DNA of 53,827 nucleotides from an uncultured archaeon (GTDB taxonomy: Archaea > EX4484-52 > JAADEF01), in the NCBI GenBank assembly GCA_964407715.1, contig CAYOWP010000002.1, positions 1 through 53,827 of the forward strand, given 5' to 3'. Below, one piece after another: positions 1 to 37,114 of this stretch. The stretch's first letter is position 1. Each line of letters starts with the position of its first letter. The position numbers were made by a program, and so were the translations under genes. The notes under the pieces are model-generated. The model worked only from the letters and a program-made list of their open reading frames with translations, was not told the origin of the DNA and ran no database searches.

Positions 1-3000
1 TGTTTGTTCCATAAATAGAGAGTCCAGTATGGAGCATATGGGGTGTGTGGGTAAGAGTAGTTGATTATGCCTAAAGAAATTCCTCCGTATTTTGCCATGG
101 GAGTATATTTGCCCCCACCTGATGCTAGGCTGTGGGCATTGAAGGCTTTAAAGCCCTGCAAAGCTTTGCCTTTCAATCCTATAGCAAAAAGAACGGCATT
201 AAGAAGGCTTATTCTTCTTGGATCTGTTCCGTTTTTGCCTCCTGCATTTATATTATACTCTGTAACAAATAAATCAAACGTTTTGTTGAATTTTTGTTTA
301 TATTTGGTTAACATGTAAGACCAGTTATACTTATAAGTGCTTCTTGCACAGTAGACCATTTTTTCTGCTTCCTCTAGTACAACAGAATCTGTCCTCCATA
401 ATCTATCATTAACGTTTAATGGCTTGTTATTATTAGGAGGATAATAGATATTATAGATATTGCTTTTATTATAAGGATACATACAAGTTCCTCCTTGCAT
501 ATATTGCCTTACAGCATAGAATTCAAATGGAAGGGAATTATTGTAGAGGTAATCGAAAAGGTAATATGGGCCATTGGTTTCTTGTCTTCCGACATTTTCT
601 ATACCAAGGAATATATCCTCTCCTAATTTTATGTTTTCAGGAAGGGATTGATTGATTTTGTTTCTGGTGTAGTTGTAGAGTTCTATGTAGCCTTGGAGAT
701 CTGTGAGCCAGAGATCGTTTATTATTACCGCATAAATTTTGGTTAGGTTTAAGCTTGTAAGGGTATGGTTTATTATATCCCAGGCAAATTGGGCGTAGTC
801 TGTTTCATTAGGCCAACAAGTGGTTGTGTTATACGGCATGCCTGGTGGGAATGCATCAGGACAGTCTCCTATTTTTATTATTGGTGTTGCGTTCAAGGTT
901 TGGGTTACATAGTTGATTATTAGATCGTATTCCGTCCAGTTGTATTGATTGCATTGGTGTGTGGTTGTGTTCCATGAGGTGCAGGGACCTTCGGTTTCGG
1001 AGGGGAAGCCAAATGTGAACACAGCTAGATACTCTCCTGTTACAGCTTTTATTTGCGTTGTATTCAATGTATCTATTACAGATAGAACTTTACTTCCAAT
1101 AGAGAATCCTGTTGTTAGGTTTACTGTGCCTATAAGATTTGTATAATTTACGGTAAGGTTTATTTTTATTGGATAGGAGAGAGAGATATTAAACTCTGTG
1201 GTTTGGGAAGTTAGGGTTAGGTTTGTGCAGAGATATGCATGAGTTAAATCTTTAAAGTTAAAACTCCAATTTGCTTTAGGATCAGGGATTATGTTCCAAT
1301 ATTTTGTTATGTTTGGATAATTAGATGTTCCCCAAGGGAAATAAAAGAATGAAGGATAGAGTATGTTTGTGCATAGGGTTATGTTTGGATATGTGTTGTT
1401 TATTAATATGTCTTTTGGTATTGTTAGGGTTATTGTGTAATTTATTTTATTATTGGAGGATGATTTTTGGTTTTTTATTTTTATTTGGTTTTTTATTGGG
1501 ATTTTGTATTTTAGGAGTAGGGTTATGTTGGGTTCTGGTGGGGTTATGTTTAGTTGTCCTGTGGTTTGGTCATAGGATAAAGCAGAAAGATAATGTTGCT
1601 TTATTTCTTCAGGGGTTAAAGCAACATTATAGATTTTGAGGTTGTCTATTGCTCCTTTTAGATTTTTGCCTATTATCAAGTCTGTGGTAGAGGTTGCTAT
1701 ATTGGAATGAAGTAATGGGTAAGTGGCAACTAATTTTCCATTGATATATAGGGAGAGATTACCATATTTGGCTGTGAATGCTATATGATTCCATTTATGC
1801 AAATTAGAGGAATTGAAAGGATATTCTATGAATACGTAATTGTCACTGCCATATTGTTCTTCTTTTACTCCCATGAGTAGACCATCTTCCCATCCGTAGC
1901 GCCATACTGTTACCCATTGGTTTGAGATGTTTGCCTCTAATCTGACTTCATCTACCCATGCTGTGCCTGTGGAGTTAGTAAAACCTAATCTGTTAATTCT
2001 TACATAAGCTGCATCTGAGGTAAGGGTTTTTACATTGCTTACGTTTTCTGTCCAGTCATAGGAATAGTTTTGGCAGTAGGTAGGGACAAGATGAAGATCA
2101 AAGGTCGATATTTGATCTTTTGAGGAATTCAGAATTCTTCCTACAAGTGCAAAATTGTGCCAGCTAACTGTTTGACTGCATGTGATGTTTTCTCCTTTAG
2201 ACCACACTCTCCATCTTAAGTGGGTTGCGTTATCTGGAATTCGGATATAAGCAGAGGATCTGTATTTTGCATCATTTGGATATTGGAATTCCTCTTGGTG
2301 AAATTTTACTGAATTATTTCCTATTATACCTGTGCCTCGGTCAATAGTTATGCTACAAGTGGAACACATTGGGTCTGGTACAGCATAAAAAGGTGCTTTT
2401 ATTGGCTGATTGTTCGGAGGTCTATATAGGTAAAGGAAGTATTCGTCTTTGTCTATTATTTTTGCTGTTTGGTTGAAGGATTCAGGTTTTAACCAGAATT
2501 CTATAGTAAGTTCTTGATTTGGTTTAAGATATGGGGAGTTCTTAACTTGGATATAGCCAGTTCCATTTAAAATTAAAGCTTTATCTTGGATTCCTCTTGT
2601 ATAGGAAATATCTTTTCCTTCTGCAAAATGGAAATGTCCTGATGAATCATAAAGATTATTGTCAAATTTTATGGATAAAACTGTGTTTTCAGTATTATGA
2701 ATATCTGGATTTGTATCTATTACTGGGTATAAAGATTTGTACATATATTGGATTTCGTAAGGGGTTAAAACTCTTGTGTAGATTCGGAAATCATCAATGC
2801 TACCGTTAAGGCCTTGGATAGTACCATGAACTCCTATTTTTAATGGATCAGTTGTATTGAATTTTAATGGTAAATTTATTTCTTTTGTGCTTATTAGTTG
2901 CCCGTTTTTGTAGATTTTGGAGATGTTTCCGTCATAAGTCCAAACAAAGAAATTCCATTGGTTGTCATTGTACCAGTCACCAGAACCGAGCCAGTGGGAT

Positions 3001-3651
3001 TGGGTTTTGAAATATATATTTAAATATTCTTCACCGCTTCCATTAGCTATAATCCATCTTAAATCTTCATCCGGATGTCTTCCCTTTGCATATATACTAC
3101 CATAATTATTCATAGGAAACCTAGGTTTTATCCAAAAGGCTATAGAGATTTGTTTTATGTTTTTCCATACTTCCAGTGGAATAGTAGAAACATTAACATA
3201 TTCTGTGCCTGTGAAATCCAAGGCACATCCATGTACTCCAGGAACCCATTGAGGGTTATTTACTAAAGTTCCGTTATATCCGTGACCTGATGTGTCATGT
3301 GCTGTTGTGCCAGAGCATTCATCAAACTTTAATGCTAATAGAGTAGAGTTATCATTATATATATCTGTGTCATTTACATATCTCCATACAGAGGGATAAA
3401 CAGCTCCTGAAGGTAAAGTTAGCGTATAAGTTCCATTATAGTTTGTGAATGTTATGTTTTGAAGGATAGTTATGTAATTATAGGAATCATCTTGTATTAT
3501 TGGGATGTTTTCTTGGAATGTGGTGGAGAAATTTACATTTCCAGATGCATAAACGATAAAGAGAAATAGAAATATCGAGAGTAGAGAAAAAATTGTAACA
3601 TAAATTTTAGTTATCTCTCTCTCTCTCTCTCTTCAGAGAGGTTTTTGGCAT
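1..3651 (-). CDS. Large secreted LamG-LamG(+CBM-like insert)-clan GH-A-like surface protein; 5' frameshift at (AG)9 tract; runs off the left window edge
   Basis: Not in the ORF track. My minus-strand translation found no stop in the frame from 3614 to the window edge. It shows a signal peptide (ITKIYVTIFSLLSIFLFLFIVYASG), LamG motifs (LKFDECSGTTAHDTSGHGYNGTL, QWNFFVWTYDG, GSIDDFRIYTRVL, WNHIAFT, GAIDNLKIYNVAL) and GH-A-like motifs (YNWTEYDLII, LFVTEYN). The ATG at 3651 is out of frame by one AG unit. Confidence 0.85.
3614..3631. repeat. (TC)9/(AG)9 simple sequence repeat in the first codons of the surface-protein gene
   Basis: Counted directly: TCTCTCTCTCTCTCTCTC at 3614-3631. Confidence 0.95.
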
Positions 3652-3674
3652 AAAAATATAATATATTGAAGGGA

Positions 3675-3689
3675 TTTATATAATTTTCT
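3675..3689 (-). promoter_or_regulatory. BRE/TATA promoter for the LamG surface-protein gene (likely leaderless)
   Basis: Minus strand reads AGAAAA-TTATATAAA, ending 24 bp upstream of ATG 3651, the typical archaeal leaderless spacing. Confidence 0.55.
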
Positions 3690-3705
3690 ATTAACATTGC
3701 CCAAA

Positions 3706-4145
3706 GGCATTGTCCAATAATTCTTTATTGTTAAGCGGAAACTTAACCTCTTACAGAAGTGCATGAGAGCAGTTAACTGTTGAATAGGGCTATGCTTCCC
3801 GTTAACCAAAATTTTTTATTTTTGAAAAAATAATGGTTAACGTGCAGGATCGCTAACACAAAGGTATTGCAGCATGCTAACCTTTCTTCAGGTTAGTTGC
3901 TTCCCAAACGCTCAGATGGATTAGCATACCATAAAGTGCCTTTTGAGAAGGTATGTCTCCCCGTTAACCATTTATCTCAAATAAATAAAATTGGTTAACG
4001 CAAAAACTCGCTTTATCACAGGTATTGCAGCATGCTAACCGCCTTGAAAAAGGGTCAGCTGCTTTGAAATGATTTTTGAGATATTATGATTCCCATTAAC
4101 AATCTTCCAAATTTATTTTGGTTAAAAAGCTTGCAGCATGTCAAT
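3706..4145. repeat. Modular palindromic repeat array, copy E1, with left 18-bp cap
   Basis: Cap GGCATTGTCCAATAATTC at 3706-3723. Monomers at 3729-3778, 3835-3882, 3891-3969 (includes extension module), 3993-4040 and 4053-4101, in alternating orientation. Confidence 0.9.
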
Positions 4146-14933: not shown

Positions 14934-15800
14934 TTAAGAATATTTTTCAAACATGATTCGTCTTAGATCACCAACACTTCTTATATTCTCTTTATTTAAA
15001 TCAACTATTTTATAGTGAATTCCTAAAGGAAATTCACCTTTCAATTTATAATACTTATATAAATTCTTCTCCTTCAAATATGTTATAAATTTAGTATTTA
15101 TCTCTTCATTTATTCTATCTAATCTTTCTTCTAGACCTCTTTTAAATTCTTCACTTATTTCAGGCTGCTTTAGCATGCCTAATATCTCATCTCCGCCGAA
15201 CATAGCAAAAAGATCCCCTTTTTTGAAATATTTTCTCAAACTCTCTCCCACAATCCTTAAATACTCATCTCCATGAGCAAGTATAGTATATCCACAAATC
15301 TCATTTACTCCCTTTAAATTTTTAACATCTAATAAAATAAAGATAGGATATTTATCTCTCTTATTTTTGATAATATAATCTATTTTTTCGTATATTTCAT
15401 CATAATTTTTAGGAAATCCTGTATGCTCATGTTTCTTAGCATTCCTAAAAAAGGTTTCTATATTATTGTTACCATTTACTTTATTATAAATCTCCTTTAT
15501 AGCGCTCTTCAACCTCTCCAAGTTCTTCTTTGAATTATATCCATCTTTTCCATTTTCATAAAACTCCTCAACGACTTTGATTAATTCTACTGTAATCTCA
15601 AAAGCTTGAGAGTCATATCTCTTTTTTTTGTTTCCGTTATTGTTATAGAGTTTTTCAATCATATTCCTAGCACTTTTTAGATATTCTGGAATCTTTGAAG
15701 TCTCTGAGTAAGGATCATGCCTTTCTCCTATAAAATTATACATTCCTCTAATTTCCTGATGTAATGGAAAACTTATATTGAAACCATTATTTCCATTCAT
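14934..15800 (-). CDS. GGDEF-domain (diguanylate cyclase-like) protein
   Basis: LLDVKNLKGVNE..G...GDEYLRIVGESL...GDLFAMFGGDEI; GGTGA Shine-Dalgarno upstream. Confidence 0.82.
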   Translation of the reverse strand: MNGNNGFNISFPLHQEIRGMYNFIGERHDPYSETSKIPEYLKSARNMIEKLYNNNGNKKKRYDSQAFEITVELIKVVEEFYENGKDGYNSKKNLERLKSAIKEIYNKVNGNNNIETFFRNAKKHEHTGFPKNYDEIYEKIDYIIKNKRDKYPIFILLDVKNLKGVNEICGYTILAHGDEYLRIVGESLRKYFKKGDLFAMFGGDEILGMLKQPEISEEFKRGLEERLDRINEEINTKFITYLKEKNLYKYYKLKGEFPLGIHYKIVDLNKENIRSVGDLRRIMFEKYS

Positions 15801-20943: not shown

Positions 20944-23340
20944 ATGAGAAATATGAAGGTTAGATGTATAAGTATAAGTGTTGGGAGTCTTATCATGTCA
21001 TTGCTAATTATGTTTATCCTTTTAAGTGCTACTATAATAATTAAACATGGTCCTTCACCAAGAAATAATATGAGCAATGATTTTGCCTCTATCACAGGAA
21101 AATTAACAAAAGAAGAAACGGCTCCTTATACATCTCAACTTTCTATAAGAAGAGAAGAAATTGAGCAAATTCTTAGACATGCTATTGTAGATTCTATAAA
21201 AGAGGTAGAAAATTATGGAGGATATTTAATTGGATATGAAGATTCGTATTTCCCTAATAAAACTGTAGATTTTAAAGGTAAAATGATTCCTCTCTATAGA
21301 GTGTGTGATAAAACACACTATCCTACTTTAGAGGAAATAAGGCAAAGAATCTTAAGGAGATTTCTAAACTTGTCAGTAATAAGATTGTCTCGCTATGCCT
21401 CTTCACATCCCGAGATAGATTTTAGAGGTTTGAATTTTAATTTGAGTATTTTAGATGGTAAGGTTCTTCTAGTTGGAGAGGTTTATGCATATTATAAAGG
21501 GAAACCAATACCTGGAGATTATTATTTAAGCATACCTACCAAGCTTAAGGAGATTTATGAATATGCAACATCATTTTCAGAATTTACGAAAAATACAAGG
21601 TTCTTAGATTATCTCTTTATATATACCTTATATAAGGCAAAAGAGGATTATTTCCCTACAAGAGATATAATGACAAAATGTGGAGAGCAAATTATCAAAG
21701 ATAGATTTGAACTTTCACATGCATTTATGGACCTCTATTACCATTTTATCTCTAATGTTAACTTTAACATTCCTCCTTCAAAGGCTAAGGAATATGAGAT
21801 GGAAGAAGATGACCCTATCTTCTTTTTATTTTCTAAAATTATTAAAGATAATAAATTAGTATATTATGAACATCTTAAAGAGATAGAACTCTTTGCGCCA
21901 GATGACTTCTTTTTCATATTTCCTGAAGGAGTTAGTATTATAAACAATGAACCTGTTCTTAAAGTGGTTGTGCCTATAGGGGATAAATGTGTGAAATATT
22001 ATGATATAGATTATTCCTTTCCATTTCCATATGTAATAGGTATAAGGGACGATTATATAAGCGATGACACCTATTTCTATTTTGCTGAATATTCATATAT
22101 AGATAAGATGACACCAGCATCTTGCGATTATGATGATATCCCAGATAACACAAAAATTTTTATTCCTGGTTTAGAAACATCTGAGTCTTATTCTGAAAAA
22201 TTGATAGAAGAAAAGGGGGCTGAGTTGGGTATAGTGGAGCAATGCAAAAAAGATAAAAAAGTGATCATACAGGTTGTTGATGACTCAAATAAACCAATTG
22301 AAGGAGCAAAAGTTTCGTATGGAGTGTGTAGTTTAGGATCCACAGATGCATATGGAAGAGTTATAGGATGGATAAGCAATGAAGAAGATGTTTTGAGAAT
22401 TTCTCCTCCAAAAGGATACGTAGGCTATTCCAAAAAAATGCAAATAAGCTCTACTTATCTCAAAATAATTCTTCCAAGAATAAAAGATATAGAAGATATT
22501 GATGTTAAATATATAAAGGTCTCTGCAGCCTTAGAATCCCCAAGCAATGAGCCAAATAAATATGCTTATATAGGCATTCATTCTTCTCTTCCTGGAGTAT
22601 TGCCAAATGCAATATTAGAATTAAGAAAATGTGAAATCTCCAATGAGAAGCCATCAGATATCAGTATGGATGTAACATTTTCATTATCTCCTATATCATA
22701 TTCTGTTAGCAACATAGAAGATAATGAGTATCTAAATCCAGGAAAAGTATATTCTGATACTTTAGACATAAATAACAACAAAGGAAAAATCTCTTTATCA
22801 TTTGGAAAATATTATATTGGTATTCTGGAATATTTTGGAGAACAAAGCAATGAAAATTATAATTTAGCTGGTTCTTTCCATTTTGATTCTTCTCAATTTA
22901 TTGAGGATATAAACAAGAGATCAATTCAGATTATTCCAAATGAATTTACCAACTTTAATATTCCTATTATTAATGTGGTATATAAGGATAATGGCCTTGA
23001 TTCATATGTGATTCAAGGGACCTCATATTTAAACATTCCGAATGTGGCTATCGCGTTATATCCGTATCAAACCGCATTGGATGAAGTTTCAAAAAGATTA
23101 TCAACATTTATTTATGAGGGTTGTGGTATTGATCCGTTTGAGGAGCCGGAATATACAAAATACTATGCTCCTATAACTTGTGAAGGATGGGTAGAAGCAG
23201 CAATGGATTGTGGTGTTGAAGACATTCATAAATACTATCATATAGACCCTATAACAGAGGAATGGATATGCGATTATGATGGAATTAAGCAAGCAATGAA
23301 TGCTTTAGGATGTAAAGTTAAGGAAGGTAAGGAATATTGA
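20944..23340 (+). CDS. Large membrane-anchored extracellular protein (798 aa)
   Basis: N-terminal TM helix; IIQVVDDSNKPIEGAKV (carboxypeptidase-regulatory-like beta sandwich); Cys-rich C-terminus. Confidence 0.75.
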   Translation: MRNMKVRCISISVGSLIMSLLIMFILLSATIIIKHGPSPRNNMSNDFASITGKLTKEETAPYTSQLSIRREEIEQILRHAIVDSIKEVENYGGYLIGYEDSYFPNKTVDFKGKMIPLYRVCDKTHYPTLEEIRQRILRRFLNLSVIRLSRYASSHPEIDFRGLNFNLSILDGKVLLVGEVYAYYKGKPIPGDYYLSIPTKLKEIYEYATSFSEFTKNTRFLDYLFIYTLYKAKEDYFPTRDIMTKCGEQIIKDRFELSHAFMDLYYHFISNVNFNIPPSKAKEYEMEEDDPIFFLFSKIIKDNKLVYYEHLKEIELFAPDDFFFIFPEGVSIINNEPVLKVVVPIGDKCVKYYDIDYSFPFPYVIGIRDDYISDDTYFYFAEYSYIDKMTPASCDYDDIPDNTKIFIPGLETSESYSEKLIEEKGAELGIVEQCKKDKKVIIQVVDDSNKPIEGAKVSYGVCSLGSTDAYGRVIGWISNEEDVLRISPPKGYVGYSKKMQISSTYLKIILPRIKDIEDIDVKYIKVSAALESPSNEPNKYAYIGIHSSLPGVLPNAILELRKCEISNEKPSDISMDVTFSLSPISYSVSNIEDNEYLNPGKVYSDTLDINNNKGKISLSFGKYYIGILEYFGEQSNENYNLAGSFHFDSSQFIEDINKRSIQIIPNEFTNFNIPIINVVYKDNGLDSYVIQGTSYLNIPNVAIALYPYQTALDEVSKRLSTFIYEGCGIDPFEEPEYTKYYAPITCEGWVEAAMDCGVEDIHKYYHIDPITEEWICDYDGIKQAMNALGCKVKEGKEY

Positions 23341-23348
23341 TAGGTGAT

Positions 23349-26300
23349 ATGGATATGAAATGGAAAAAAATAAGTATTAAAAGAGAAAAATTGAATAAAG
23401 CAATATCCATTTTCATCAATTATTTAATCTTAAGTCTAACATTTATGCTTCCTTACTTAATATCTAAAGAAATTTCTGTTGTATATGCCACATCTACAGC
23501 AGAAGCAATCTCTATAAATGTTGTAAATGCTGATAAAATCTCATGGAGCGTAATTGATGAAAAAGATTATTTCTATTTATTAGATGATATCATATTAGAT
23601 GTTGTTTTTTCAGGTATAGGAAGTTCTAGTAATATAGGTGATGTTAAGATTTCTTATATATTGAATGGAAATGAACTTTTCGGTGAATGTGATGTATCCG
23701 GAATTAGCAGTGTAAGTGTTAGATATACCTGTATCTTATCCTCAATTTATTCTACTCTTGAGATTATTCAGGAAGATGATGATGGTAATAAATATATTGA
23801 TTTACCAATAAGGGTCTATTATAAATACAACACAGGTGCTGCATGGGAAAATAGACAATATGAAGAACAAAAAAGGATTTATCTTAAATCTGAACCCGAA
23901 TATGAAGATATATATGTAGGAATAGATCATATAGAAATAGAATCTCCTCTAGATTTAAAAGCCTCTTATTATATAGGAGATGATAATAAAACTTATTGTA
24001 AGATTACATCATTGTATGATTCAGAATCACAAGTAAAAATAAATATAACTACAAACTATCCAAATCCAGATGATGAGGAAATTTTTGATCCTATTATTTC
24101 AACATTATATTTATATTTAGAAAATGAAGAAAATCTATCAATAAACCTTTTATCTTCCTGTGAGTTTAATAAGATGTATTCCTCTGAAGAAGAATCAAGA
24201 TTTATTTTAGAATATACATGTACAATATCCTCTATTGAGCCTTCTGGAGAATATTTTGTATGCGCCAACTCCCCAAAAAGCTCAGGAGATGTGGTATCAA
24301 AGAATGGCAAGTTTTCTGTAAAAATAAATCAAAATATTGAGGAATTGATAGATGAGATATATAGTTTTAACATTAGACTTGAAAATGAAGTAAATATTTT
24401 GGAGGAATCTCAAGAAAATGTTGTTGTTGTGCTGGATCATGAAGGTCCATTTTTGTGGAGTGTAATTCCTTCAGAAGGATATTATTATATGAAAGAAAAC
24501 ATTCCTATAAGAATAACTTTTTCTGGTGTTGAAGGAGTATCTATCTCTGATGTAAAAATATCATCTGACATATCTGATTATCAGGATAAATATCCATGTA
24601 CATATGAAAGTAGTGATGATAACTCTATATCGTATTATTGCACGCTTCCAAGGATATATGGATCATTGTCATATTCTATAGTGAGAAATAAAGAAATTCC
24701 TTTAAATATCAGAGTTGATTATAAACTAAGAGTTCATGGTGAAGAGGTGCAAAGATCAGTATATGATGACATAGTTATTGTATTAGATGATGAATATGAT
24801 ACAGAGACGGAAATAGTAACAATAGACAATATAGATATTAATGGTAGACTGGATCTTATAGCCTCTGCATATATCTCAAAAGATTTAAATTCATATTGTA
24901 AGATAGTAAGTTTGAAAGAGTATCCAGAGATTTATATCAATGTTTCTACAAATTATCTTAATCCAAATGACATCTCTATTTCTTTAGATCATCTTTATAT
25001 CTCTTATCCTGATGGAGAGTTTGATATCCCTCTTAGTTTGGCTTCTTCATGTTCCTTTGTCAGAAAAAATGATTTTAGTATGATACTTACATATAGATGT
25101 AGGATAGATGATATAAAAGGTCAGTATTATAAATTATGTGCAAATTATATAGTTTCTGAAGGTTCTATTCTTCCATATTTGGGAGCACTTGGAATTACAA
25201 TAACATATAGCAATTATGATAACGAACATAAATACTCTTTTCAGGATGAATATGTGGTTGAGATTTCATCAGTTGTGGAATCTTTAAACTTGAATTCAGA
25301 AGTTTCAAGTGTTGGTGAAGAAGAAATCTCATGTGTTTATAATGACAACTCCAATTATTGCGCATACTTGGGTGAGTCTAAGGAGTTAAAGAAATTGTTG
25401 TTTGATATAACAATACACAATTTTGATCCTTCATATGAAATAGAATCTTTTGATCTCTTATTGAATATAGATGAATCCTTATATGGCTCTGAAGATGATT
25501 TCTATTTAGGCTCTTGTGAATTAATTGATAGATATGGAACTGACGTGATATATGAATGTGGATATTATTTGCCGCTTATGATAAGGGAAGATCATAAAAT
25601 TATCTCCTATGAAGGAATATTAACTTATCTTGATGAAAATAATGAGGAAAAAACTGCTATTCTCTCAGGAGATTTTGCTTTACCTCTTCATCAAGAAAGA
25701 GAAGATATTGAGATATTTTATTTCATTAGCAATTATTCAATAGAAGAAACAGAGCCACCAAAGATTTCATTTACTCAAAATCCTGATGGAACTCTAAATT
25801 GCTATGTTGATCCAAGAACAAATAAATGTTATTTTGGTGAAGTGGATATAAATGGAACAAAGATTGAATATCCTCTCTTTTTAAGAATTTCAGGATATGT
25901 ATTCTCAAATCTCTTATTAGATGAAGAGAAAGATATATTAAATGTTTCATTTAGAGTATCAACCCAGCCTGGTGAAAAATATTCAGTTAGCATCTCTACA
26001 AGGGATTGTACATATGAAGAATATATAGGATTTAAGGGTATTTATGAGATTCAATGTATCAAAGATTTATCTAAGGAAGAGCCATTTATTAATGGAATTA
26101 TTTATGATCCTAAGAATCCTCCTGTTATAGAATATGAAATAGAATATGCTACTGGATTTAATAAAGGAGAGACAATCTCTGTTGGAAGTGAACAGACTCA
26201 AATAGAGGAATCTCTCTTAGAGCATATCTCAACAATTGATTTTGAAATCTTAGATATCATATTTACTAAAGAAATATCTGATAAGATATTCAAATTATCT

Positions 26301-28526
26301 CCTGCTCTTGCTATAGAGGATTCTAAATGGAAATATCCTTATCCTGTATGCAGGATTCCTACATATATTGGAAAATATTTAGGAGAGGAAACAGGATGTG
26401 ATGATAATGATTTAACCTGTATAATAAGCAATATGGATTCCCTAAGTAGAGAAGAAATAGAGAGAGCATATTGTAAATTTGATTCTGGAATATGGTTTAT
26501 CGGAAAAATTGATGGCATATACAACAAATCTAACTTGAGATTTTTAACAGCGAGATATTATTTAGGAGATAGCTCAAATGTTGTTGATATGAGTATTGCT
26601 CCTAAGGTTTGCTTAGACAGATCCTATTTCAGTAATGAGGAAAAATTATGTGATGTTGTATATAATGATGGCTCTTCTGCAGGTAATTGTATTGTTATTG
26701 ATGAAGGAAAGAAAGAATCGCTGTTGTTATTGTGTCCATTTGAATATGAGCTTGGTAAGGTCTTACCATTGGATACCATTCCAACAGATATTGCGTTTGT
26801 TGAGGATCCTTTAGTTATTTCAATAAGTGTTGAGGATAATGGATATCTTAGAAATGGAACTGATGTATATCCATTTAAATATATAATTGAAAACTCATAT
26901 AACACTATTACATACGCATTAAATACATTCAAACAAGAATCTGATAAAGTGAAAAAGAGAATTTCTGAGCTTAAAGATACTGAAAAAAGAATGTTAACTG
27001 TTTTAGGGGTTATTACTGGAGCAGATGTGGCTTATGGCGCTAAATATAGACCAAGTTTTCTCTCATTCTTACCAGGCCCAAGCTTATGTTTAATTGGATG
27101 TTTGCCATGTTGGGATCCTAAACATCCTGGAAAGTATAAGGCATGTGTTGCTTCTGCATTTAAGAATGCTCACTCTTCTCCATCTACTAGCGTACGAATT
27201 ATGGGCTGTGGAAAATGTGTTCCTTTAATAGATGCTGCATTTTCATGTACTTTGGCAGGTTCAATGTTAATAGGAAAATCTCTTGTTTCGCAAGTAGAGA
27301 ACTATAGAGATAAAATAGACGAATTGGATGATAAAATAATGAAATTACAAGAGCTATTAAGTACTGCTGAAGAACCAGATGAACTCTTTTCATACACTTC
27401 ATATATAAGAAACTATATAGATAAGGAAGGCTCTTCAAATAGAGATAGCTTTGGTAGAAGTTGGGAGGCCAAGTTATTTATGGAAGACATTCCTGATTGG
27501 GCTAAATTTGTAATAGCTGCTCCTTATGGTATAGTATGTGCAAGAAGTATGTTCTCAAGTGCTGGAAGCACAGCAGACAAGCTTGGCCTTAAAGTTATAA
27601 AATCTGCTGCTATTTCAATGGGGCTTTCATCAACATTACAATGGATTTATACAGGCAAGATTAATATTAGAAAGGCCTTAATCTCCGGTGTAATAGGAGG
27701 AATCATAGCTGGAGCTGAAGGAATAATTGGAAGCAAATTAGAGAATATAGGAGATATAATAAAGTATATTGGTATTGCGAGAGTGGGAGGTACAGCAATT
27801 ATCTCTATTATAAGCGGTAAACTTGATGGTTTTTGTCGGTTAATAGGCAACTTCTTCTTAGGAAGTGGAATAGGAATGGCAATCCAAGGAGGTATCGAAG
27901 CTCTAAAAGAAACTCCAGACATATTAAAAATAACTTATGATAAATGGAGGATTAGCAAATTACCTCTCTCAAGGGATATTGAATATAGATTTGTGTGTAC
28001 AGAAAACCAGGAATGTGGTTGGGCATTCTATTCAAAGAAGGGAGAGTTTTTAGGTTTCGTAAATGAAGATAAGTTAGGGGAGTTCATAGATAAAATGAAG
28101 ATTCACAAAAATATAGATGAGGAGGTTCTTCAGAGTCTGGGGGAGCTACAACAAATAGAGCTTCCGAAGTTGAGCTTATCTGAAAGTCATTTGCCACAGG
28201 GTGTTAACTATGAATTTGAGTGTATTACAAGAGATATGTGTGGATGGAAATTCTATTATAAAGATAAATATATCGGATTTTTACCGGAAGAAAAAGAAAA
28301 ATATTTCAGTGTTGAGATTTTAAGAAACGAAATGATTTCTGATAAAAAACCTATACAAATACATAAACTGATGGATATACTAAATAAATATGAATATGGT
28401 GGAGAGGGGAATGTGAAAAAAGCAAAAAGTAAAGAAAATAATAAAGATAAGTCGCAGGATTTAAATAAAGAAAAAGTAGATAAAAAAGTGAAGAACATAT
28501 ATGATGATAGAAGCCATTGGGCATAA
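23349..28526 (+). CDS. Giant Cys-rich surface protein (~1725 aa) with internal repeats and a C-terminal Gly-rich hydrophobic region
   Basis: Signal/TM at the N-terminus, acidic beta-rich repeats, coiled coil and GxxxG helices. ATG 23349 follows GGTGA; the ORF track start is 23337. Confidence 0.85.
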   Translation: MDMKWKKISIKREKLNKAISIFINYLILSLTFMLPYLISKEISVVYATSTAEAISINVVNADKISWSVIDEKDYFYLLDDIILDVVFSGIGSSSNIGDVKISYILNGNELFGECDVSGISSVSVRYTCILSSIYSTLEIIQEDDDGNKYIDLPIRVYYKYNTGAAWENRQYEEQKRIYLKSEPEYEDIYVGIDHIEIESPLDLKASYYIGDDNKTYCKITSLYDSESQVKINITTNYPNPDDEEIFDPIISTLYLYLENEENLSINLLSSCEFNKMYSSEEESRFILEYTCTISSIEPSGEYFVCANSPKSSGDVVSKNGKFSVKINQNIEELIDEIYSFNIRLENEVNILEESQENVVVVLDHEGPFLWSVIPSEGYYYMKENIPIRITFSGVEGVSISDVKISSDISDYQDKYPCTYESSDDNSISYYCTLPRIYGSLSYSIVRNKEIPLNIRVDYKLRVHGEEVQRSVYDDIVIVLDDEYDTETEIVTIDNIDINGRLDLIASAYISKDLNSYCKIVSLKEYPEIYINVSTNYLNPNDISISLDHLYISYPDGEFDIPLSLASSCSFVRKNDFSMILTYRCRIDDIKGQYYKLCANYIVSEGSILPYLGALGITITYSNYDNEHKYSFQDEYVVEISSVVESLNLNSEVSSVGEEEISCVYNDNSNYCAYLGESKELKKLLFDITIHNFDPSYEIESFDLLLNIDESLYGSEDDFYLGSCELIDRYGTDVIYECGYYLPLMIREDHKIISYEGILTYLDENNEEKTAILSGDFALPLHQEREDIEIFYFISNYSIEETEPPKISFTQNPDGTLNCYVDPRTNKCYFGEVDINGTKIEYPLFLRISGYVFSNLLLDEEKDILNVSFRVSTQPGEKYSVSISTRDCTYEEYIGFKGIYEIQCIKDLSKEEPFINGIIYDPKNPPVIEYEIEYATGFNKGETISVGSEQTQIEESLLEHISTIDFEILDIIFTKEISDKIFKLSPALAIEDSKWKYPYPVCRIPTYIGKYLGEETGCDDNDLTCIISNMDSLSREEIERAYCKFDSGIWFIGKIDGIYNKSNLRFLTARYYLGDSSNVVDMSIAPKVCLDRSYFSNEEKLCDVVYNDGSSAGNCIVIDEGKKESLLLLCPFEYELGKVLPLDTIPTDIAFVEDPLVISISVEDNGYLRNGTDVYPFKYIIENSYNTITYALNTFKQESDKVKKRISELKDTEKRMLTVLGVITGADVAYGAKYRPSFLSFLPGPSLCLIGCLPCWDPKHPGKYKACVASAFKNAHSSPSTSVRIMGCGKCVPLIDAAFSCTLAGSMLIGKSLVSQVENYRDKIDELDDKIMKLQELLSTAEEPDELFSYTSYIRNYIDKEGSSNRDSFGRSWEAKLFMEDIPDWAKFVIAAPYGIVCARSMFSSAGSTADKLGLKVIKSAAISMGLSSTLQWIYTGKINIRKALISGVIGGIIAGAEGIIGSKLENIGDIIKYIGIARVGGTAIISIISGKLDGFCRLIGNFFLGSGIGMAIQGGIEALKETPDILKITYDKWRISKLPLSRDIEYRFVCTENQECGWAFYSKKGEFLGFVNEDKLGEFIDKMKIHKNIDEEVLQSLGELQQIELPKLSLSESHLPQGVNYEFECITRDMCGWKFYYKDKYIGFLPEEKEKYFSVEILRNEMISDKKPIQIHKLMDILNKYEYGGEGNVKKAKSKENNKDKSQDLNKEKVDKKVKNIYDDRSHWA

Positions 28527-31451: not shown

Positions 31452-32069
31452 ATGAAGAAGTGGATGAGATATTTATCACTTAAGGAAATCAAGGATTTGT
31501 TTTTTGCTTCATTTATAATTGCTTTTATTGTTTCAATACATTCTTTTACAGATTTCCTGAATAAAAGCTTTTATATCTCATATATTATAGCTTTTCTTAT
31601 TTTATCCATAAGTTTTATATTGCATGAAATGGCACATAAATTTACAGCAATAAGATATGGAATGTTTGCCCAATTTGAAATCTCATATATTGGTCTTTTA
31701 TTTTCATTGGCACTTAAAATGCTTACAGGAATAATCTTGATAATCCCTGGAGCAGTTGTGATATATAAGCATTTTATTCATAAGTCAAGAAAAAAAGAAA
31801 TAGCAATTCAGGGAGTGATTGCATTAGCAGGACCATTAGTGAATTTAGCACTTTCTCTTTTATCTTTCCTTTTCTATTATATTTCCAAAGTTTCCTTTTT
31901 TAGTGACTTCTTTTATACCTTCTCCTATATAAATGCTATTCTTTTATTGTTTAATCTATTACCAATTCCTCCATTAGATGGTTTTAAAGTTGCAAGATGG
32001 AGTTTGCCTGTTTACATACCTCTATTCATTTTCTCTTTAATTTGGTTTTATATAATCTCAACTCTCTAA
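31452..32069 (+). CDS. Site-2 protease (peptidase M50)
   Basis: HEMAH, ALAGPLVN and NLLPIPPLDG motifs. Confidence 0.92.
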   Translation: MKKWMRYLSLKEIKDLFFASFIIAFIVSIHSFTDFLNKSFYISYIIAFLILSISFILHEMAHKFTAIRYGMFAQFEISYIGLLFSLALKMLTGIILIIPGAVVIYKHFIHKSRKKEIAIQGVIALAGPLVNLALSLLSFLFYYISKVSFFSDFFYTFSYINAILLLFNLLPIPPLDGFKVARWSLPVYIPLFIFSLIWFYIISTL

Positions 32070-35000
32070 TGGAAAATTTTTCCTAATAAACGCAAAATAG
32101 CATTTATTATTCTTCTAATAACACTAGTTTTGTGTTTTAATCTTTTTGTTTCATATGAACAATTAATATATTTGGATTCTATATATAATTTCTCATTATT
32201 TTTCAATATGAAAAGCCTTTCATTGTTAATTATCTCTGTGGAATTTCCATCTTCTTTCTCTATGGTGATGGTAAGATTTTGAATAAGAGGTATTATTTCA
32301 ACTGCAACTTTGTCATCATAAACAAAGCACCTATATTTATATATTTGCTTTTTATTTATATCTGTGATGTTGGATTTGTTTGTCTCTTTTTCAATTTTAT
32401 CAGATTCTATATAATAAATGTAAGGCATGTCTTTTTCTATAACATAAAATGTTTTATTATCAAATGAATATTTTATTCTTATTTTTGATCCATTAAGATT
32501 TGCTTCTGGTTTTATGCACATCTTTAATAATATCCTGCTCTTGTTTGTGAATTTCAGGTTTGCTTTCCATCCTTTAATAGTGATATTATTTGAGGTGTTG
32601 CAATAATAAGAAAGAAGATTGTTGTCTTTGTTTATTATATAAGAGTATAGGGTTACATATTTTCTATCAGTATTATTTATAATGATATAGACTTCGCTAT
32701 CCTTAAATATGATTGTATCCACAATTAGCTTGGATTTCATATTATCCTCTCTTTCCATAGAAGGAACAAATGTAGAGTGAGATTTCTCATTTTTATCAGA
32801 ATTTGCATGTGTTGAAATCTCTCTTTTTATGCTTCCTTTATATACTATCTCGCTTTCTTTCCAGGTTAAAGAAGAAAGAGAATTGCAAAATGGATTTTCA
32901 ATTTTTGCTTTTATTTTTATTAAAGGATGTGTCATCTTTGATGTTATGTGACTGTTAAATTTTAATTTTCTTTTTAACTCTTTATGGCAAATAATATCAG
33001 TAAATGTCTCCTTCTCATATAATGTATTTCCATCTCCATCTTCTATTAAGTAAATTATGGATATAGGATGTTCAACATTAAAGCAAAGAGAATCATCTAA
33101 GATAATTTTATAATTTAGGGTTTCATCCTTATCAATTGTATTTTTATATGGATAAATAGATATGGAGAAGTTGCATAATAAAGTTGTCTCATTAAATATC
33201 TCTATAGGAAAAGAAAATGAACTTGATTCGTTCTCCATTGAGATACTCAAATTAACCATATAATATCCTGCTTTTAACTCGTATGGAATATCTAAATATG
33301 CTGTCTTTGAACAAAGAATATCATAAATATAATGCTTAGTTATATTTCCAATTGTATATGCTATGTTAACAGGTTTCAAATCGCAATATTTTTTCTTTAT
33401 TTTAATCTTTATTTTTCCTCCCTTAAATACCTTTGATGTTAAAAGAGTTGCTGTAATAGTTTTGTCTTTTTTATTTGTGTCTCGTGTTTCATTCAATGCA
33501 CTTAATATCTTTTTCTCATAAAGAGGAGAGGGTATGTCCTCGTAAGTGGTATTATATGCTATGTGAATTGAGCATATCTCCTTGTTGCAGCAAGAAGAAG
33601 GAGTATAGGAAAAATTATCTACTAATATACCTTTATGATATATCGCGATTTCTTCTCCTTTATTGTTTAATCTCATCTTATTTACCTCTATTACTCTTGA
33701 TGTCATATTTTCAAGTATGTCAAATTCTTCCATGAATAATGTTTTGTTCCTAACAAACACATAATAACCTGGAACAAGGTCTAAAAGCAAGGTATGATTC
33801 TTATTTTCATATATTGTAATTGATGTATTGTAAAGTGGAATATCATTATAATAAACCTCTATAAACTCTAATTCCTCATTAGGAGGATTTGGATAAATCT
33901 CTGTGATATAAAGAGATGGTACAGAGGATAAATCTAAATAAAAAGAGGAATTTCCAATAATAAAATAATATCTTCCTCTTTGCATCATTAATTGTCGCTT
34001 ATCTAACATCAATTTATTATTTCCTTTTTTCAAAGATACAGGAATCACATTCCAGATGTTTTTCTCAGTATTATAAATTATCAAAGATTTATTTAATTTG
34101 TCAAAAGAAGAAAAGATGTCAAGATATAAATATCTTCCATAGTTCTTTATATTCATGATTTTTATATCAGGAGCATATTCAAGATAAAAAGAGAGGTTTT
34201 TAATCTTATAAATGCTTTCTTTTTCCTTACATATTATAGGAATTAAAATAAACAACTGAATTTTGCCATTGATAGTATGTAGAGAATAAGTATATGGGCT
34301 GCAATTTAATAAGTTATCAGAAACTTTTTCTTTGTTAAGTATTTCTTTATGTATGTTATATTTTAAGGTATAATTGTCAACATGTGGAATGAATAAAACA
34401 TCTGTAAAAATGAAATCCTCATATGCTAAGACATTTTGATTTAACAATTCTGTGATATTAACATCATCAAAATAATCCTCAAAAGAATATGTCTTAATAG
34501 TAATAATCTTGTTTGAGATATCCTCATTATAAGATGCTAACCTTATAGAACTCTTCAAAGAACGGTATTTTCGCGTTATAATCTGCTCTTTATCCAACTT
34601 CTCTTCTTTCCTTTTTAAAGGAGTAAGAATCTTGATAGTAGGATCTCCAAGAAGTATCCTTCCATAACCCTCATCATATCTTCTATGAGAAATTCCTAAT
34701 CTCTCAAAAATGTCGTTCTTTGCAATAATTAAATTCGCGCTATCTCTCAATGCATTTCCTATATTCTCATCATATGTAAGCAAGAATCTTGCAAAATTTC
34801 CAAATCTTTCTTGGGCATATCTACTATGTTTATTAGATGTAAGCACAATGCCAAAGCCTCCTTTTTTGAATAAGTGTTTTCCTATATCATAAGTGCTATC
34901 ATAATCTAAATAGAACATACCTTTAAATGAGGGTAAAATGTGCACATCAACATCTGGATATACAAAAGTACCATCCTTAATCCTTCCAAAATATCCAAAG

Positions 35001-37114
35001 AAATCATATTCCCTAAGATTATCAAATGCTGATAAAGAGAGGTTTTCCTCAAACAAGTCTCCTTTATAAAGATCAGAGATTGAAAGGCCTTGCAAAGAAA
35101 TCTTTTCATAGTTTAATTCATGTATTGCTTGTAAGATTTCTGATGTAATCTCTGAAATGCCATAGATTGCTAAATAAAGTGATCCTCCGCTAATAGCCTT
35201 CTTAGCTAAGATAGCAGATATAATTTCCTTTAATTTCTCATAATTTTCCTTTCCTTCATCAAATATCTTGCTTATTTCTGCTCTTCTTTCAACATATCTT
35301 TTAACATTAACTCCATACATAGAAAACCATTTCCTTGCAATTAAAGATGTGAACATACCATTATATTTATTAATAAATGCAATGGATGTTGGTTGCTCAT
35401 ATTCAGCCATTAATAATGCGTTTTTAATCATAAATCTTTCTTTAGGATAAAATGGATATGGTATTATTCCAACACCAATCTCAATAAAATCGTCCTCATC
35501 CATATTGCCATAACTCAAATCTGAAAATTGATTTTCATCACCAAATAGAATGATGAACAAACCATTTAATTTGAAATATGGGTTTTTATTGATATCGTAT
35601 GAGAAAAGTTTTCTAATAATGTTTTTAATCTCATCTGAGGTTGGAGCATTATCCACAAGATATAGATATGATTTGTTTGCATATAAAATAGCAAGGTTTT
35701 TCCATTTAAGATCAAAAGGAATAATTGAGATACCATAAATACTTTGATTAAATGTTCTAAAATATTCTTTTTCTGCTTCCTCTCCACACAGATATATGTC
35801 AGCATTTTTATAATCCTCAATATATACTCCTCTATTATGATATGCTATTGCTCCAACAAAAAGTTTTGATGTGATATCTGAGCAAGAGGAATATGTTGTA
35901 ATGTTATTCTCCTTACAAAGTTTTATAAGTAAATCTCTATTTATCTTTATTCCGCTATATGTTGGAGGATCTGTATTATAAAGATAATAATATGGCTTGT
36001 CTTGAGTTATGCTTGTAAGATACTTTAATTTAAATGCATTTGAAAATGTTAGTCCTTCTAATGAATAAGAATCATAAAGAGGAATATTGCTATGAAGAAC
36101 AAATTTTTGTTTTGTTTGAGTGTTATCTTGAGTTGCATATCCGTCACATTTTTCCTGTGTCAAAACAGTATCAACATAAGAACTTAAAGTTTCGTCATTT
36201 TTTCTATAAAAATAAATTATTTTTGCGAAAATGGTTTGATCCTTAGATAACCCAAGATTGGTAATGATATTGCTTGCAAAATATATTCTCCATATATTGT
36301 CAAAACTTTTGTGATGTATATTTGGAAGAAATATTTCAATGGATCCTTCAATAGTATTTGAACTGCAAAGCCTAGAAAATAGCACTCCCATGCCATTATC
36401 TGTCTTTCTATAGAGAAAGAGAGAAGTATTTTTTAAAGGAAAAATCTTTGTTTTTCCTGAAACCTCTGGATGATAACGATCACATCCTTCAGAGATTTTT
36501 ATTTTCTTGTTGTTAATCAAAAAATAGGGGAATAAAAAGATATTATACTTTTCTCCATAAAAAGGAAGCTCAAAAACATTCTTTAATGAAAAAACGAAGA
36601 TGTCTTTCTTAGGAGTAAAGGATATGTATTTCACTAAGTAATCCTTTTCGCTGTCAAATCTATATCCTATATACAAATCAAAATCATTATTAGAAAATAG
36701 ATACCATATCTCATCTTTTGTTTCATTGATTATTTCTCCATGTGTACATCGTGAGAAAAAGGTTTTTTGTCGGTTGTTTAAAGTGTCATATCTTATATAA
36801 ATCCAATTTCCATACTTCCGAGCATAATTATAGGTTAAATGAAATATGTCCTCTGAGATATCAAATGTATCATCATCATTTATGTCATAATACCATGATG
36901 ATATAATGCCTTTTGGAAAGTATTTGTCAGAGCATTTATATTCTTGAATAAGAGGTATAGAGTCTATTCTTATTATTGCTTTTTTTCCAATGAATTCTTT
37001 TATTTTTATTGATTCTTCAGCATAAGAGATGTTAAATAAAAACAAATAATTTAAAGCCATGAATAAAAGCAAAGCATATAAACATCTTTGTTTATATGCC
37101 TTACTTTTATTCAT
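32066..37114 (-). CDS. Large secreted protein with peptidase C25-like and lamin-tail (LTD) domains (1682 aa)
   Basis: Signal peptide; IILFGD..., IEIGVGIIP, IGNAL and LLGDPTIKI (C25-like); LYITEIYPNP...EFIEVY and LNNKGEEI (LTD). Confidence 0.7.
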   Translation of the reverse strand: MNKSKAYKQRCLYALLLFMALNYLFLFNISYAEESIKIKEFIGKKAIIRIDSIPLIQEYKCSDKYFPKGIISSWYYDINDDDTFDISEDIFHLTYNYARKYGNWIYIRYDTLNNRQKTFFSRCTHGEIINETKDEIWYLFSNNDFDLYIGYRFDSEKDYLVKYISFTPKKDIFVFSLKNVFELPFYGEKYNIFLFPYFLINNKKIKISEGCDRYHPEVSGKTKIFPLKNTSLFLYRKTDNGMGVLFSRLCSSNTIEGSIEIFLPNIHHKSFDNIWRIYFASNIITNLGLSKDQTIFAKIIYFYRKNDETLSSYVDTVLTQEKCDGYATQDNTQTKQKFVLHSNIPLYDSYSLEGLTFSNAFKLKYLTSITQDKPYYYLYNTDPPTYSGIKINRDLLIKLCKENNITTYSSCSDITSKLFVGAIAYHNRGVYIEDYKNADIYLCGEEAEKEYFRTFNQSIYGISIIPFDLKWKNLAILYANKSYLYLVDNAPTSDEIKNIIRKLFSYDINKNPYFKLNGLFIILFGDENQFSDLSYGNMDEDDFIEIGVGIIPYPFYPKERFMIKNALLMAEYEQPTSIAFINKYNGMFTSLIARKWFSMYGVNVKRYVERRAEISKIFDEGKENYEKLKEIISAILAKKAISGGSLYLAIYGISEITSEILQAIHELNYEKISLQGLSISDLYKGDLFEENLSLSAFDNLREYDFFGYFGRIKDGTFVYPDVDVHILPSFKGMFYLDYDSTYDIGKHLFKKGGFGIVLTSNKHSRYAQERFGNFARFLLTYDENIGNALRDSANLIIAKNDIFERLGISHRRYDEGYGRILLGDPTIKILTPLKRKEEKLDKEQIITRKYRSLKSSIRLASYNEDISNKIITIKTYSFEDYFDDVNITELLNQNVLAYEDFIFTDVLFIPHVDNYTLKYNIHKEILNKEKVSDNLLNCSPYTYSLHTINGKIQLFILIPIICKEKESIYKIKNLSFYLEYAPDIKIMNIKNYGRYLYLDIFSSFDKLNKSLIIYNTEKNIWNVIPVSLKKGNNKLMLDKRQLMMQRGRYYFIIGNSSFYLDLSSVPSLYITEIYPNPPNEELEFIEVYYNDIPLYNTSITIYENKNHTLLLDLVPGYYVFVRNKTLFMEEFDILENMTSRVIEVNKMRLNNKGEEIAIYHKGILVDNFSYTPSSCCNKEICSIHIAYNTTYEDIPSPLYEKKILSALNETRDTNKKDKTITATLLTSKVFKGGKIKIKIKKKYCDLKPVNIAYTIGNITKHYIYDILCSKTAYLDIPYELKAGYYMVNLSISMENESSSFSFPIEIFNETTLLCNFSISIYPYKNTIDKDETLNYKIILDDSLCFNVEHPISIIYLIEDGDGNTLYEKETFTDIICHKELKRKLKFNSHITSKMTHPLIKIKAKIENPFCNSLSSLTWKESEIVYKGSIKREISTHANSDKNEKSHSTFVPSMEREDNMKSKLIVDTIIFKDSEVYIIINNTDRKYVTLYSYIINKDNNLLSYYCNTSNNITIKGWKANLKFTNKSRILLKMCIKPEANLNGSKIRIKYSFDNKTFYVIEKDMPYIYYIESDKIEKETNKSNITDINKKQIYKYRCFVYDDKVAVEIIPLIQNLTITIEKEDGNSTEIINNERLFILKNNEKLYIESKYINCSYETKRLKHKTSVIRRIINAILRLLGKIFH

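Follow-up and report, generated by a model that had tools for sequence, protein, structure and literature searches.

The locus and its reading frames

The window analyzed here is a stretch of 53,827 nucleotides at the start of a contig (C2) in the genome of an uncultured archaeon (host genome G000; 898,521 bases in 16 contigs, 92% complete, 0.26% contamination). The lineage can be tentatively assigned to the DPANN phylum EX4484-52, for which the available text of a recent study proposes the name Caliditerrarchaeota (10.1101/2025.08.05.668663). The neighboring genes are archaeal housekeeping genes that encode, according to Pfam matches, GatE, exosome and proteasome components, the large subunit of PolD and Cdc6. 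At the edge of the contig, a long reading frame on the minus strand is separated from its apparent start codon by an AG repeat; the 3' end of this gene is missing because the window begins at the contig end. The following elements were identified at the 5' end of the gene (upstream to downstream in the direction of transcription):

3705..4140, no strand assigned: cluster of palindromic intergenic repeats that occur genome-wide (224 BLAST pieces); context, outside the proposed switch
3676..3689, minus strand: TATA box TTATATAA (3683-3676) with a BRE-like purine run; the spacing matches the modal TATA-to-ATG distance of the genome
3607..3651, minus strand: OFF-state ORF of 14 codons, MPKTSLKRERERDN, translated from a probably leaderless ATG (3651-3649) and terminated by TAA (3609-3607)
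3614..3632, minus strand: perfect (AG)9A tract of 19 nt that constitutes the proposed switch; 7 or 10 units would be in frame; on the plus strand, it reads (TC)9 at 3614-3631
3546..3613, minus strand: remainder of the predicted signal peptide, with a hydrophobic core and probable cleavage after VYA (translation, judged by eye)
3..3632, minus strand: long frame, 1,210 codons, open to the contig end

The start codon proposed in the original prediction lies 24 nt from the end of the TATA box, exactly as claimed, for a motif-to-ATG distance of 32 nt. TATA-like motifs upstream of the ATGs of 635 ORFs of at least 150 aa in the host genome peak at 31, 32 and 33 nt (30, 20 and 14 matches, respectively, compared to 1 to 10 at other distances). 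Such a spacing between the TATA box and the ATG is typical of leaderless archaeal transcripts. Because the distance at the locus falls on the genome's own peak, the ATG at 3651 is very likely the true, leaderless start. The purine run upstream of the TATA box resembles the BRE of archaeal promoters.

The long frame is closed upstream by a TGA (3635-3633), and its first ATG, GTG or TTG is codon 138, past the hydrophobic leader, which bears out the claim that no start codon precedes the signal peptide. This configuration is rare: only 4 open frames of at least 250 codons in the host genome lack a start within the first 45 codons, and two of these are the window gene and its paralog on contig C16; the other two are an extension across an apparent tRNA gene and an apparent antisense frame. 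The number of repeat units sets the frame, given that the tract is located in the 5' coding region and the unit length is not a multiple of three. A check of the frame arithmetic agreed with the prediction that one additional AG unit (10) or two fewer (7) would join the ATG to the long frame.

The tract is exceptional for this genome. Maximal AG/GA runs of 6, 7, 8, 9, 10 and 11 nt are found 462, 392, 84, 27, 8 and 1 times, respectively, followed by only two runs of 19 nt, one in the window gene and one in the C16 paralog. Under Markov models of order 1 to 5, between 0.00005 and 0.0025 (AG)9 words are expected per genome. The run counts together with this expectation exclude origin of the tract by chance. 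The absence of a comparable dinucleotide run, noted originally for the window, extends, with the exception of the C16 paralog, to the whole genome, in which (AG)9 is the longest AG run, the next longest consists of 5 units, and no other dinucleotide exceeds 5 units.

The encoded protein

Two types of domains could be recognized in the translation of the long frame, the first of which is represented by three stretches matching Laminin_G_3 (LamG, PF13385) in Pfam:

2748..3209, minus strand: best Laminin_G_3 (PF13385) stretch, residues 142-295 (Pfam, E 1e-41)
3..1160, minus strand: predicted GH39-like TIM barrel (clan GH-A), C-terminally incomplete (structural model and Foldseek)

The last 386 residues produced no Pfam match and no match in an alignment of the C-terminal region against the sequences of solved structures in the PDB. 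The model of the barrel was built from 5 sequences and has low confidence (mean pLDDT 51); the best 10 Foldseek matches of this model are all GH39 beta-xylosidases (E 3e-5 to 4e-4). Members of GH39 are GH-A TIM barrels with two catalytic glutamates. We take the IND/INE and TE positions of the alignment to be these glutamates; the TE motif is conserved, whereas at the other position both paralogs have Asp (IND) in place of the Glu of three homologues (INE or GNE). Given the replacement of one Glu by Asp at the presumed catalytic positions, the modeled barrel may bind glycans rather than cut them. The long frame also contains 51 N-X-S/T N-glycosylation sequons; jointly, the hydrophobic leader, the three LamG stretches, the GH39-like fold and the sequons suggest that the product is exposed on the cell surface. 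In a homologue (P0136), the sequence goes on for approximately 110 residues beyond the position that corresponds to the contig end; the C-terminus and any anchor of the window gene product thus fall outside the assembled sequence, and a tblastn search of the other contigs with the tails of homologues did not recover this lost part.

Several other features of the window and the host genome are listed here as separate observations. The window encodes a 288-aa ORF with a GGDEF match (14934-15800, minus strand; E 2e-8), which is unusual for an archaeon, and three large ORFs of 798, 1,729 and 1,682 aa without a Pfam match (20944-23340, plus strand; 23337-28526, plus strand; and 32066-37114, minus strand, respectively). 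A second multi-copy mosaic family of surface proteins, with beta-helix-like repeats, is found in the host genome at C2:111155-113226, C14:18515-21677 and C3:38766-39507 and on C10, C13 and C9; the 5' parts of its genes are 90-95% identical, several are located at contig ends, and their leaders carry no long repeat tract. A segment of 43,696 bp is 100% identical, in opposite orientation, between C8:7161-50856 and C9:262-43957, and almost certainly represents a duplicate assembly of one DNA segment.

A paralog on contig C16 and a mosaic gene family

The C16 paralog is a 1,217-codon open frame that is 68% identical to the window gene, has the same leader and is likewise out of frame with its start codon. 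Comparison of C2 and C16 delineates three blocks of complete identity:

3313..3693, no strand assigned: 381 bp, including the promoter, leader, tract and first ~105 codons of the long frame
1233..1541, no strand assigned: 309 bp, internal
1..55, no strand assigned: 55 bp, terminal; both contigs break here, and the common 3' end is unassembled

Outside these blocks, the synonymous sites of the two paralogs differ by 37-77% per 100 codons. Over the entire comparison, dS is 0.71 and dN is 0.23, for a dN/dS ratio of 0.32, and both frames remain open over ~3.6 kb. The downstream frame, which the original prediction described as intact and for which it suggested this measure, is thus free of stops throughout the assembled part of the gene (the 3' end being unassembled) and is under purifying selection.

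The flanking genes differ between the two copies, TatD and GatE at one versus TrxB and GatB at the other, and each of the four is present in a single copy. Therefore, the C2 and C16 copies are two loci of one genome; the single-copy flanks rule out a split bin as the source of the two copies. A cluster of the palindromic repeats lies directly upstream of the shared promoter block at both paralogs. A third variant, from another assembly (P0001, 814 aa), is 75% identical to the window gene (A) and 58% identical to the C16 paralog (B). It is 100% identical to A over residues 901-950 and yet only 72-74% identical in regions where A and B are themselves identical. Such patchy identity among A, B and P0001 points to a mosaic family shaped by recombination. 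The 9 units counted in A and the 9 counted in B are not independent observations because the assembler may collapse the identical 381-bp block.

AG tracts in relatives across the phylum

In the genome set used for comparison, the order, class and phylum comprise the same 42 genomes. The (AG)8 word occurs at 10 places in 6 of these, and 8 places were kept for the analysis; all tracts of one genome, G001 (2 AG, 8 AC and 1 G), were left out of the counts as they are located on contigs of ~1 kb that are rich in microsatellites and appear non-archaeal. These contigs (C136, C152 and others) are probably contamination of the bin. The original prediction suggested a search for similar tracts at the starts of other surface genes, and such tracts were indeed found: 7 of the 8 AG runs of at least 16 nt lie within 40 codons of a start, with AG on the coding strand, and 6 belong to genes for secreted proteins or lipoproteins. 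None of the 8 is located mid-gene. In addition to the runs in the window gene and the C16 paralog, these are:

G011 C29: 18 nt; gene for a LamG protein with an open frame of 841 codons; one unit too long to be in frame
G011 C21: 20 nt; gene for a secreted protein; neither of the two ATGs is in frame
G016 C40: 16 nt; gene of 1,253 codons for a LamG and Ig-like protein; the second and third ATGs are in frame and the first is not
G022 C31: 19 nt; NMT1/THI5 lipoprotein, run directly after the signal; needs one unit more
G011 C7: 18 nt; gene for a SAM methyltransferase, located among genes of glycosylation type; in frame
G018: 17 nt; intergenic (the eighth run), with 13 nt at the orthologous place in G028

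The 7 runs in 5' coding DNA are spread over three families; their frame offsets are mixed, and the frames downstream of them remain intact. When kin are counted once, 4 of 5 events map to 5' coding DNA (with a target of 5-12% of positions, P lies between 4e-5 and 9e-4 under a null model that ignores the greater tolerance of N-termini to in-frame repeats). Two of the tract genes of relatives encode LamG surface proteins (G011 C29 and G016 C40). In the three surface genes of G011 and G016, runs of 16, 18 and 20 nt are each followed by CAATAAT, although the mature parts of the proteins differ; two of the three come after a gene for a class I Trp/Tyr tRNA synthetase. In G022, tandem lipoprotein paralogs at the head of an ABC operon are both split in an AG run after the signal and need -1 and +1 unit, respectively. 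The orthologue of the G022 lipoprotein in G014 is intact and has no run, which indicates that the tracts arise locally. An unambiguously in-frame gene for a secreted protein with a long tract was not found among those surveyed.

Shorter AG runs and other repeats present a different picture. The 11 further AG runs of 12-15 nt include one 5' frameshift (in the tandem G022 lipoprotein paralog that needs one unit fewer), two that are mid-gene and in frame, and 8 that cross no long frame. Among the control repeats, none of the 4 (AC)6+ loci in genomes other than G001 falls within the 5' coding portion of a long frame, and neither does any of 11 (AT)8+ loci, which were drawn from the matches at one per genome. 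Eight poly-G loci were examined, and one of them, in G027, lies between an ATG and a signal peptide.

Several related observations are recorded separately. The G11 run in G027 (C117, L200:911-921) places the gene out of frame, and the first frame has only 134 codons; the paralog that directly follows has the same leader with G8, in frame. In G016, six LamG genes at contig ends share a near-identical 5' sequence (C25, C31, C44, C45, C58 and C60; L183, L002, L188, L185, L181 and L187) and a seventh (C52) has a pilin-like N-terminus; this looks like a multi-copy variable family. A pattern scan across GTDB returned 46 loci, mostly bacterial, and only two archaeal loci were analyzed. In a Methanosphaera record (L133), 17-nt GA runs (minus strand, 209-225 and 1497-1513) split two tandem paralogous genes for restriction-modification methylases, one run in each; the second methylase has an Eco57I match, and its gene is shifted additionally in an A run. 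Phase variation of a methyltransferase in a second archaeal lineage is a possible interpretation.

Alleles at the locus and mismatch repair

Parts of the window are represented, as contigs, in four DNA runs; no RNA dataset is listed with the stretch. Among the listed pieces, the tract is spanned only by one from run X1, a single 300-letter Logan contig that covers 3394-3693 without a gap and hence contains 9 units, in a second, independent assembly; the X2 and X4 pieces are cut at the repeat. Variant calling left out positions 3603-3642, and contigs drop minor alleles; with the repeat thus skipped and minor alleles lost, the X1 contig counts against an assembly error and is silent on switching. 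Sequencing depth is equally uninformative on hidden alleles: the shared 5' contig of X1 has a depth of 39.3, compared to 21-32 for the copy-specific contigs, which is below the sum of the latter (21 + 31), but the other shared block (43.8) falls below this sum as well. Four of the five translated strain differences (3432 and 3435 in X1; 3393, 3423 and 116 in X2) are synonymous.

Neither an in-frame allele nor a close relative of the window gene was found in JGI metagenomes, GTDB relatives or protein sets. A scan of the JGI metagenomes with the N-terminal 134 aa retrieved 7 loci, all distant LamG matches; a DNA search with the leader in 5 genomes of the family matched only the host genome; the leader pattern was not detected in viral contigs; and in a protein search with residues 1-110, 0 of 113 shorter and 0 of 214 near-length candidates passed.

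MutS is encoded in 15 of the 42 genomes of the phylum and was not found in the host genome, G011, G016 or G022. The host genome (92% complete) also lacks a MutL match and has a NucS match only below the cut-off. Tracts are present in 4 of 27 genomes without MutS and in 0 of 15 with it, a difference that is not significant (P = 0.28). The missing MutS/MutL match makes slippage plausible and fits an accidental loss of the gene equally well.

A candidate phase-variation locus and the competing explanations

Phase variation through slippage in simple sequence repeats (SSR) is a textbook trait of bacterial pathogens. The locus displays the static signatures of a contingency locus: a start codon that is very likely genuine, a pure tract of exceptional length, a product of surface type, a downstream frame that is intact and evolves under purifying selection, a similar layout in relatives with other tract lengths and offsets, and no recognizable mismatch repair. 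Membership in the class of SSR-mediated translational phase-variation systems is accordingly likely but unproven. Slipped-strand phase variation of glycan-binding surface proteins, combined with gene conversion between paralogs, is the interpretation that we favor, with a probability of about 0.65. The original prediction of an ON/OFF switch of an adhesin or host-interaction protein stands in part: the static signatures, as well as the LamG and GH39-like domains with their presumed capacity for binding, fit this proposal, whereas no in-frame allele was found and the contigs have 9 units.

The proposed mechanism, in which the slippage rate, reversibility, export, ligand and purpose are what we infer from the anatomy of the locus, can be outlined as follows. 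The transcript, a leaderless mRNA, would begin with the ATG at 3651. A ribosome translating an mRNA with 9 AG units would meet the TAA after 14 codons, and no protein would be exported; the gene would be OFF at 8 or 9 units and ON at 7 or 10. In the latter case, translation from the ATG would continue through a basic N-region and the hydrophobic core, which together would form a single signal peptide, and the cell would secrete a glycosylated surface protein that exceeds 1,200 residues, with three LamG lectin-like domains followed by a GH39-like barrel. Replication slippage would add or remove AG units and, being left uncorrected without MutS/MutL, would cause daughter cells to switch stochastically and heritably. 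Gene conversion would keep one promoter-leader-tract cassette in front of two different binding regions (C2 and C16); with paralogs alike in the cassette and unlike in the middle, cells could display A, B, both or neither. The likely purpose would be to vary attachment to host glycans or to hide a virus receptor.

The foremost competing explanation, which we consider unlikely, is accidental loss: an AG run coding for Arg-Glu would have grown in a tolerant leader in the absence of mismatch repair, slipped once and killed a dispensable gene, after which conversion copied the broken leader, so that the locus would be a recent pseudogene. Apart from the lack of a MutS/MutL match, this scenario can account for the prevalence of out-of-frame tracts among the genes for secreted proteins, the absence of a variant allele in the contigs at the locus, and the local origin of tracts implied by the G014 orthologue. 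Moreover, N-termini collect repeats partly through tolerance alone, and their enrichment can be biophysical, according to the available text of one study (PMC3315296). However, the downstream frames examined (1,203, 1,210, 841, 1,253, 317 and 317 codons) contain no second lesion, the pattern recurs in three families, AG runs of at least 16 nt are absent mid-gene, and the run is pure over 9 units where the next longest of the genome reaches 5. Furthermore, random tract lengths would by themselves give a mostly-OFF picture (P = 0.13 for 5 of 5 out of frame).

Recoding is somewhat less probable still. Under this explanation, the DNA would be fixed at 9 units, and either RNA polymerase would slip by one unit or the ribosome would slip by -2, from AGA to AGA, yielding a constant low level of the full protein. 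On an AG run, a slip of -2 restores perfect pairing and is equivalent to one additional unit, the very offset needed here, and 9 units are kept in both paralogs; the run also pairs with downstream pyrimidine-rich codons (z -2.3; 6 of 200 shuffles are as stable). This pairing, however, employs the run itself rather than a 3' stimulator and is unremarkable at 5 other folded loci (36 to 135 of 200 shuffles as stable), so an RNA hairpin was rejected as a conserved stimulator. In addition, the relatives share no conserved offset (some tracts need one unit more, some need one fewer, and some are in frame), and therefore one programmed shift cannot serve all of them.

Dinucleotide runs tend to lose one unit in PCR. 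An assembly or library artefact, with a true length of 10 units and the gene ON, would be compatible with this tendency, given that the locus needs one more unit, and the X1 run is possibly the window's own source; nevertheless, an artefact appears very improbable since the second, independent assembly (depth 39) likewise has 9 units, the contig-end overlaps of the assembly, at 55 nt, exceed the 19-nt run, and the tracts of G011 C29 and the first G022 paralog are one unit too long, whereas stutter would shorten them. Hardly credible is an alternative start at the ATA (3614) or ATT just after the run, with the run acting as a ribosome-binding element or with re-initiation after the short ORF: an in-frame ATA there would retain the whole hydrophobic core, and an AG run lies 2 nt before an ATG in G018 and G028, but ATA and ATT starts are very rare in prokaryotes, and a downstream start cannot explain the relatives because the G022 run follows a complete lipoprotein signal and the G011/G016 runs precede AAT.

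Relationship to known systems and implications

The closest parallel to the favored slipped-strand switch is babB of Helicobacter pylori, together with the babBA and babBC chimeras, for which the available text describes 5-14 CT units in the 5' coding region and gene conversion among the bab loci (PMC4552749). As in babB, a dinucleotide run of similar length is located a few codons past the ATG and the number of units sets the frame; as in the bab paralogs of the same text, surface genes at separate loci have conserved ends and a variable middle, with the repeat-bearing 5' end spread by conversion, and the mosaic identity among A, B and P0001 parallels that of these paralogs (PMC4552749). The differences from babB, as described in that text, are that the AG (Arg-Glu) run is located in the N-region, in contrast to CT in the hydrophobic core; that the gene belongs to an archaeon, with a TATA promoter and probably a leaderless mRNA; that the product is a LamG and GH39-like protein as opposed to an outer-membrane protein; and that switching, which is proposed here, has been demonstrated for babB.

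A poly-A run switches p78 of Mycoplasma fermentans, a surface lipoprotein encoded in an ABC transporter operon (cited in the available text of PMC3711429). The two NMT1/THI5-type lipoprotein genes that head the ABC operon of G022, split just after the signal, resemble p78 as portrayed there; the likeness concerns this relative rather than the window gene, the repeat is a dinucleotide and not a homopolymer, and p78 is bacterial. The haloarchaeal virus phiCh1 varies its phase by DNA inversion. Its variable proteins are adhesion proteins (a reference in the available text of PMC10791045), so phase variation of surface-adhesion proteins has a precedent in the archaeal domain; however, that system is viral and recombination-based, unlike the proposed ON/OFF switching of a cellular gene by repeat slippage.

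No report of repeat-driven phase variation in cellular archaea was found in the main texts of the largely open-access literature searched. Phase variation is not mentioned in the available text of the study that named the phylum (10.1101/2025.08.05.668663), the accessible portions of PMC13076061, PMC6851277, PMC11001535 and PMC6792436 contain nothing relevant, and a 2025 review, in its available part, leaves the archaeal distribution of repeat-driven phase variation to future exploration (PMC11868660). Whether contingency loci of the bacterial type have evolved repeatedly in the DPANN archaea of this phylum is, in our assessment, evenly balanced. Under this broader proposal, lectin-like surface proteins, lipoproteins that bind nutrients and enzymes that modify glycans would carry AG and poly-G tracts in their leaders, a portable cassette would be moved between adhesin paralogs by conversion, and a host-dependent archaeon would pick at random the host-binding proteins that it displays.

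If the broader proposal is correct, cellular archaea would gain their first described slipped-strand phase-variation system. The mechanism itself would be classical. The number of units per read is a read-out that can be used in existing metagenomes without cultivation. For the way in which DPANN archaea recognize, attach to and depart from their hosts, a switchable mosaic pair of glycan-binding surface proteins would provide concrete candidates for host-recognition genes.
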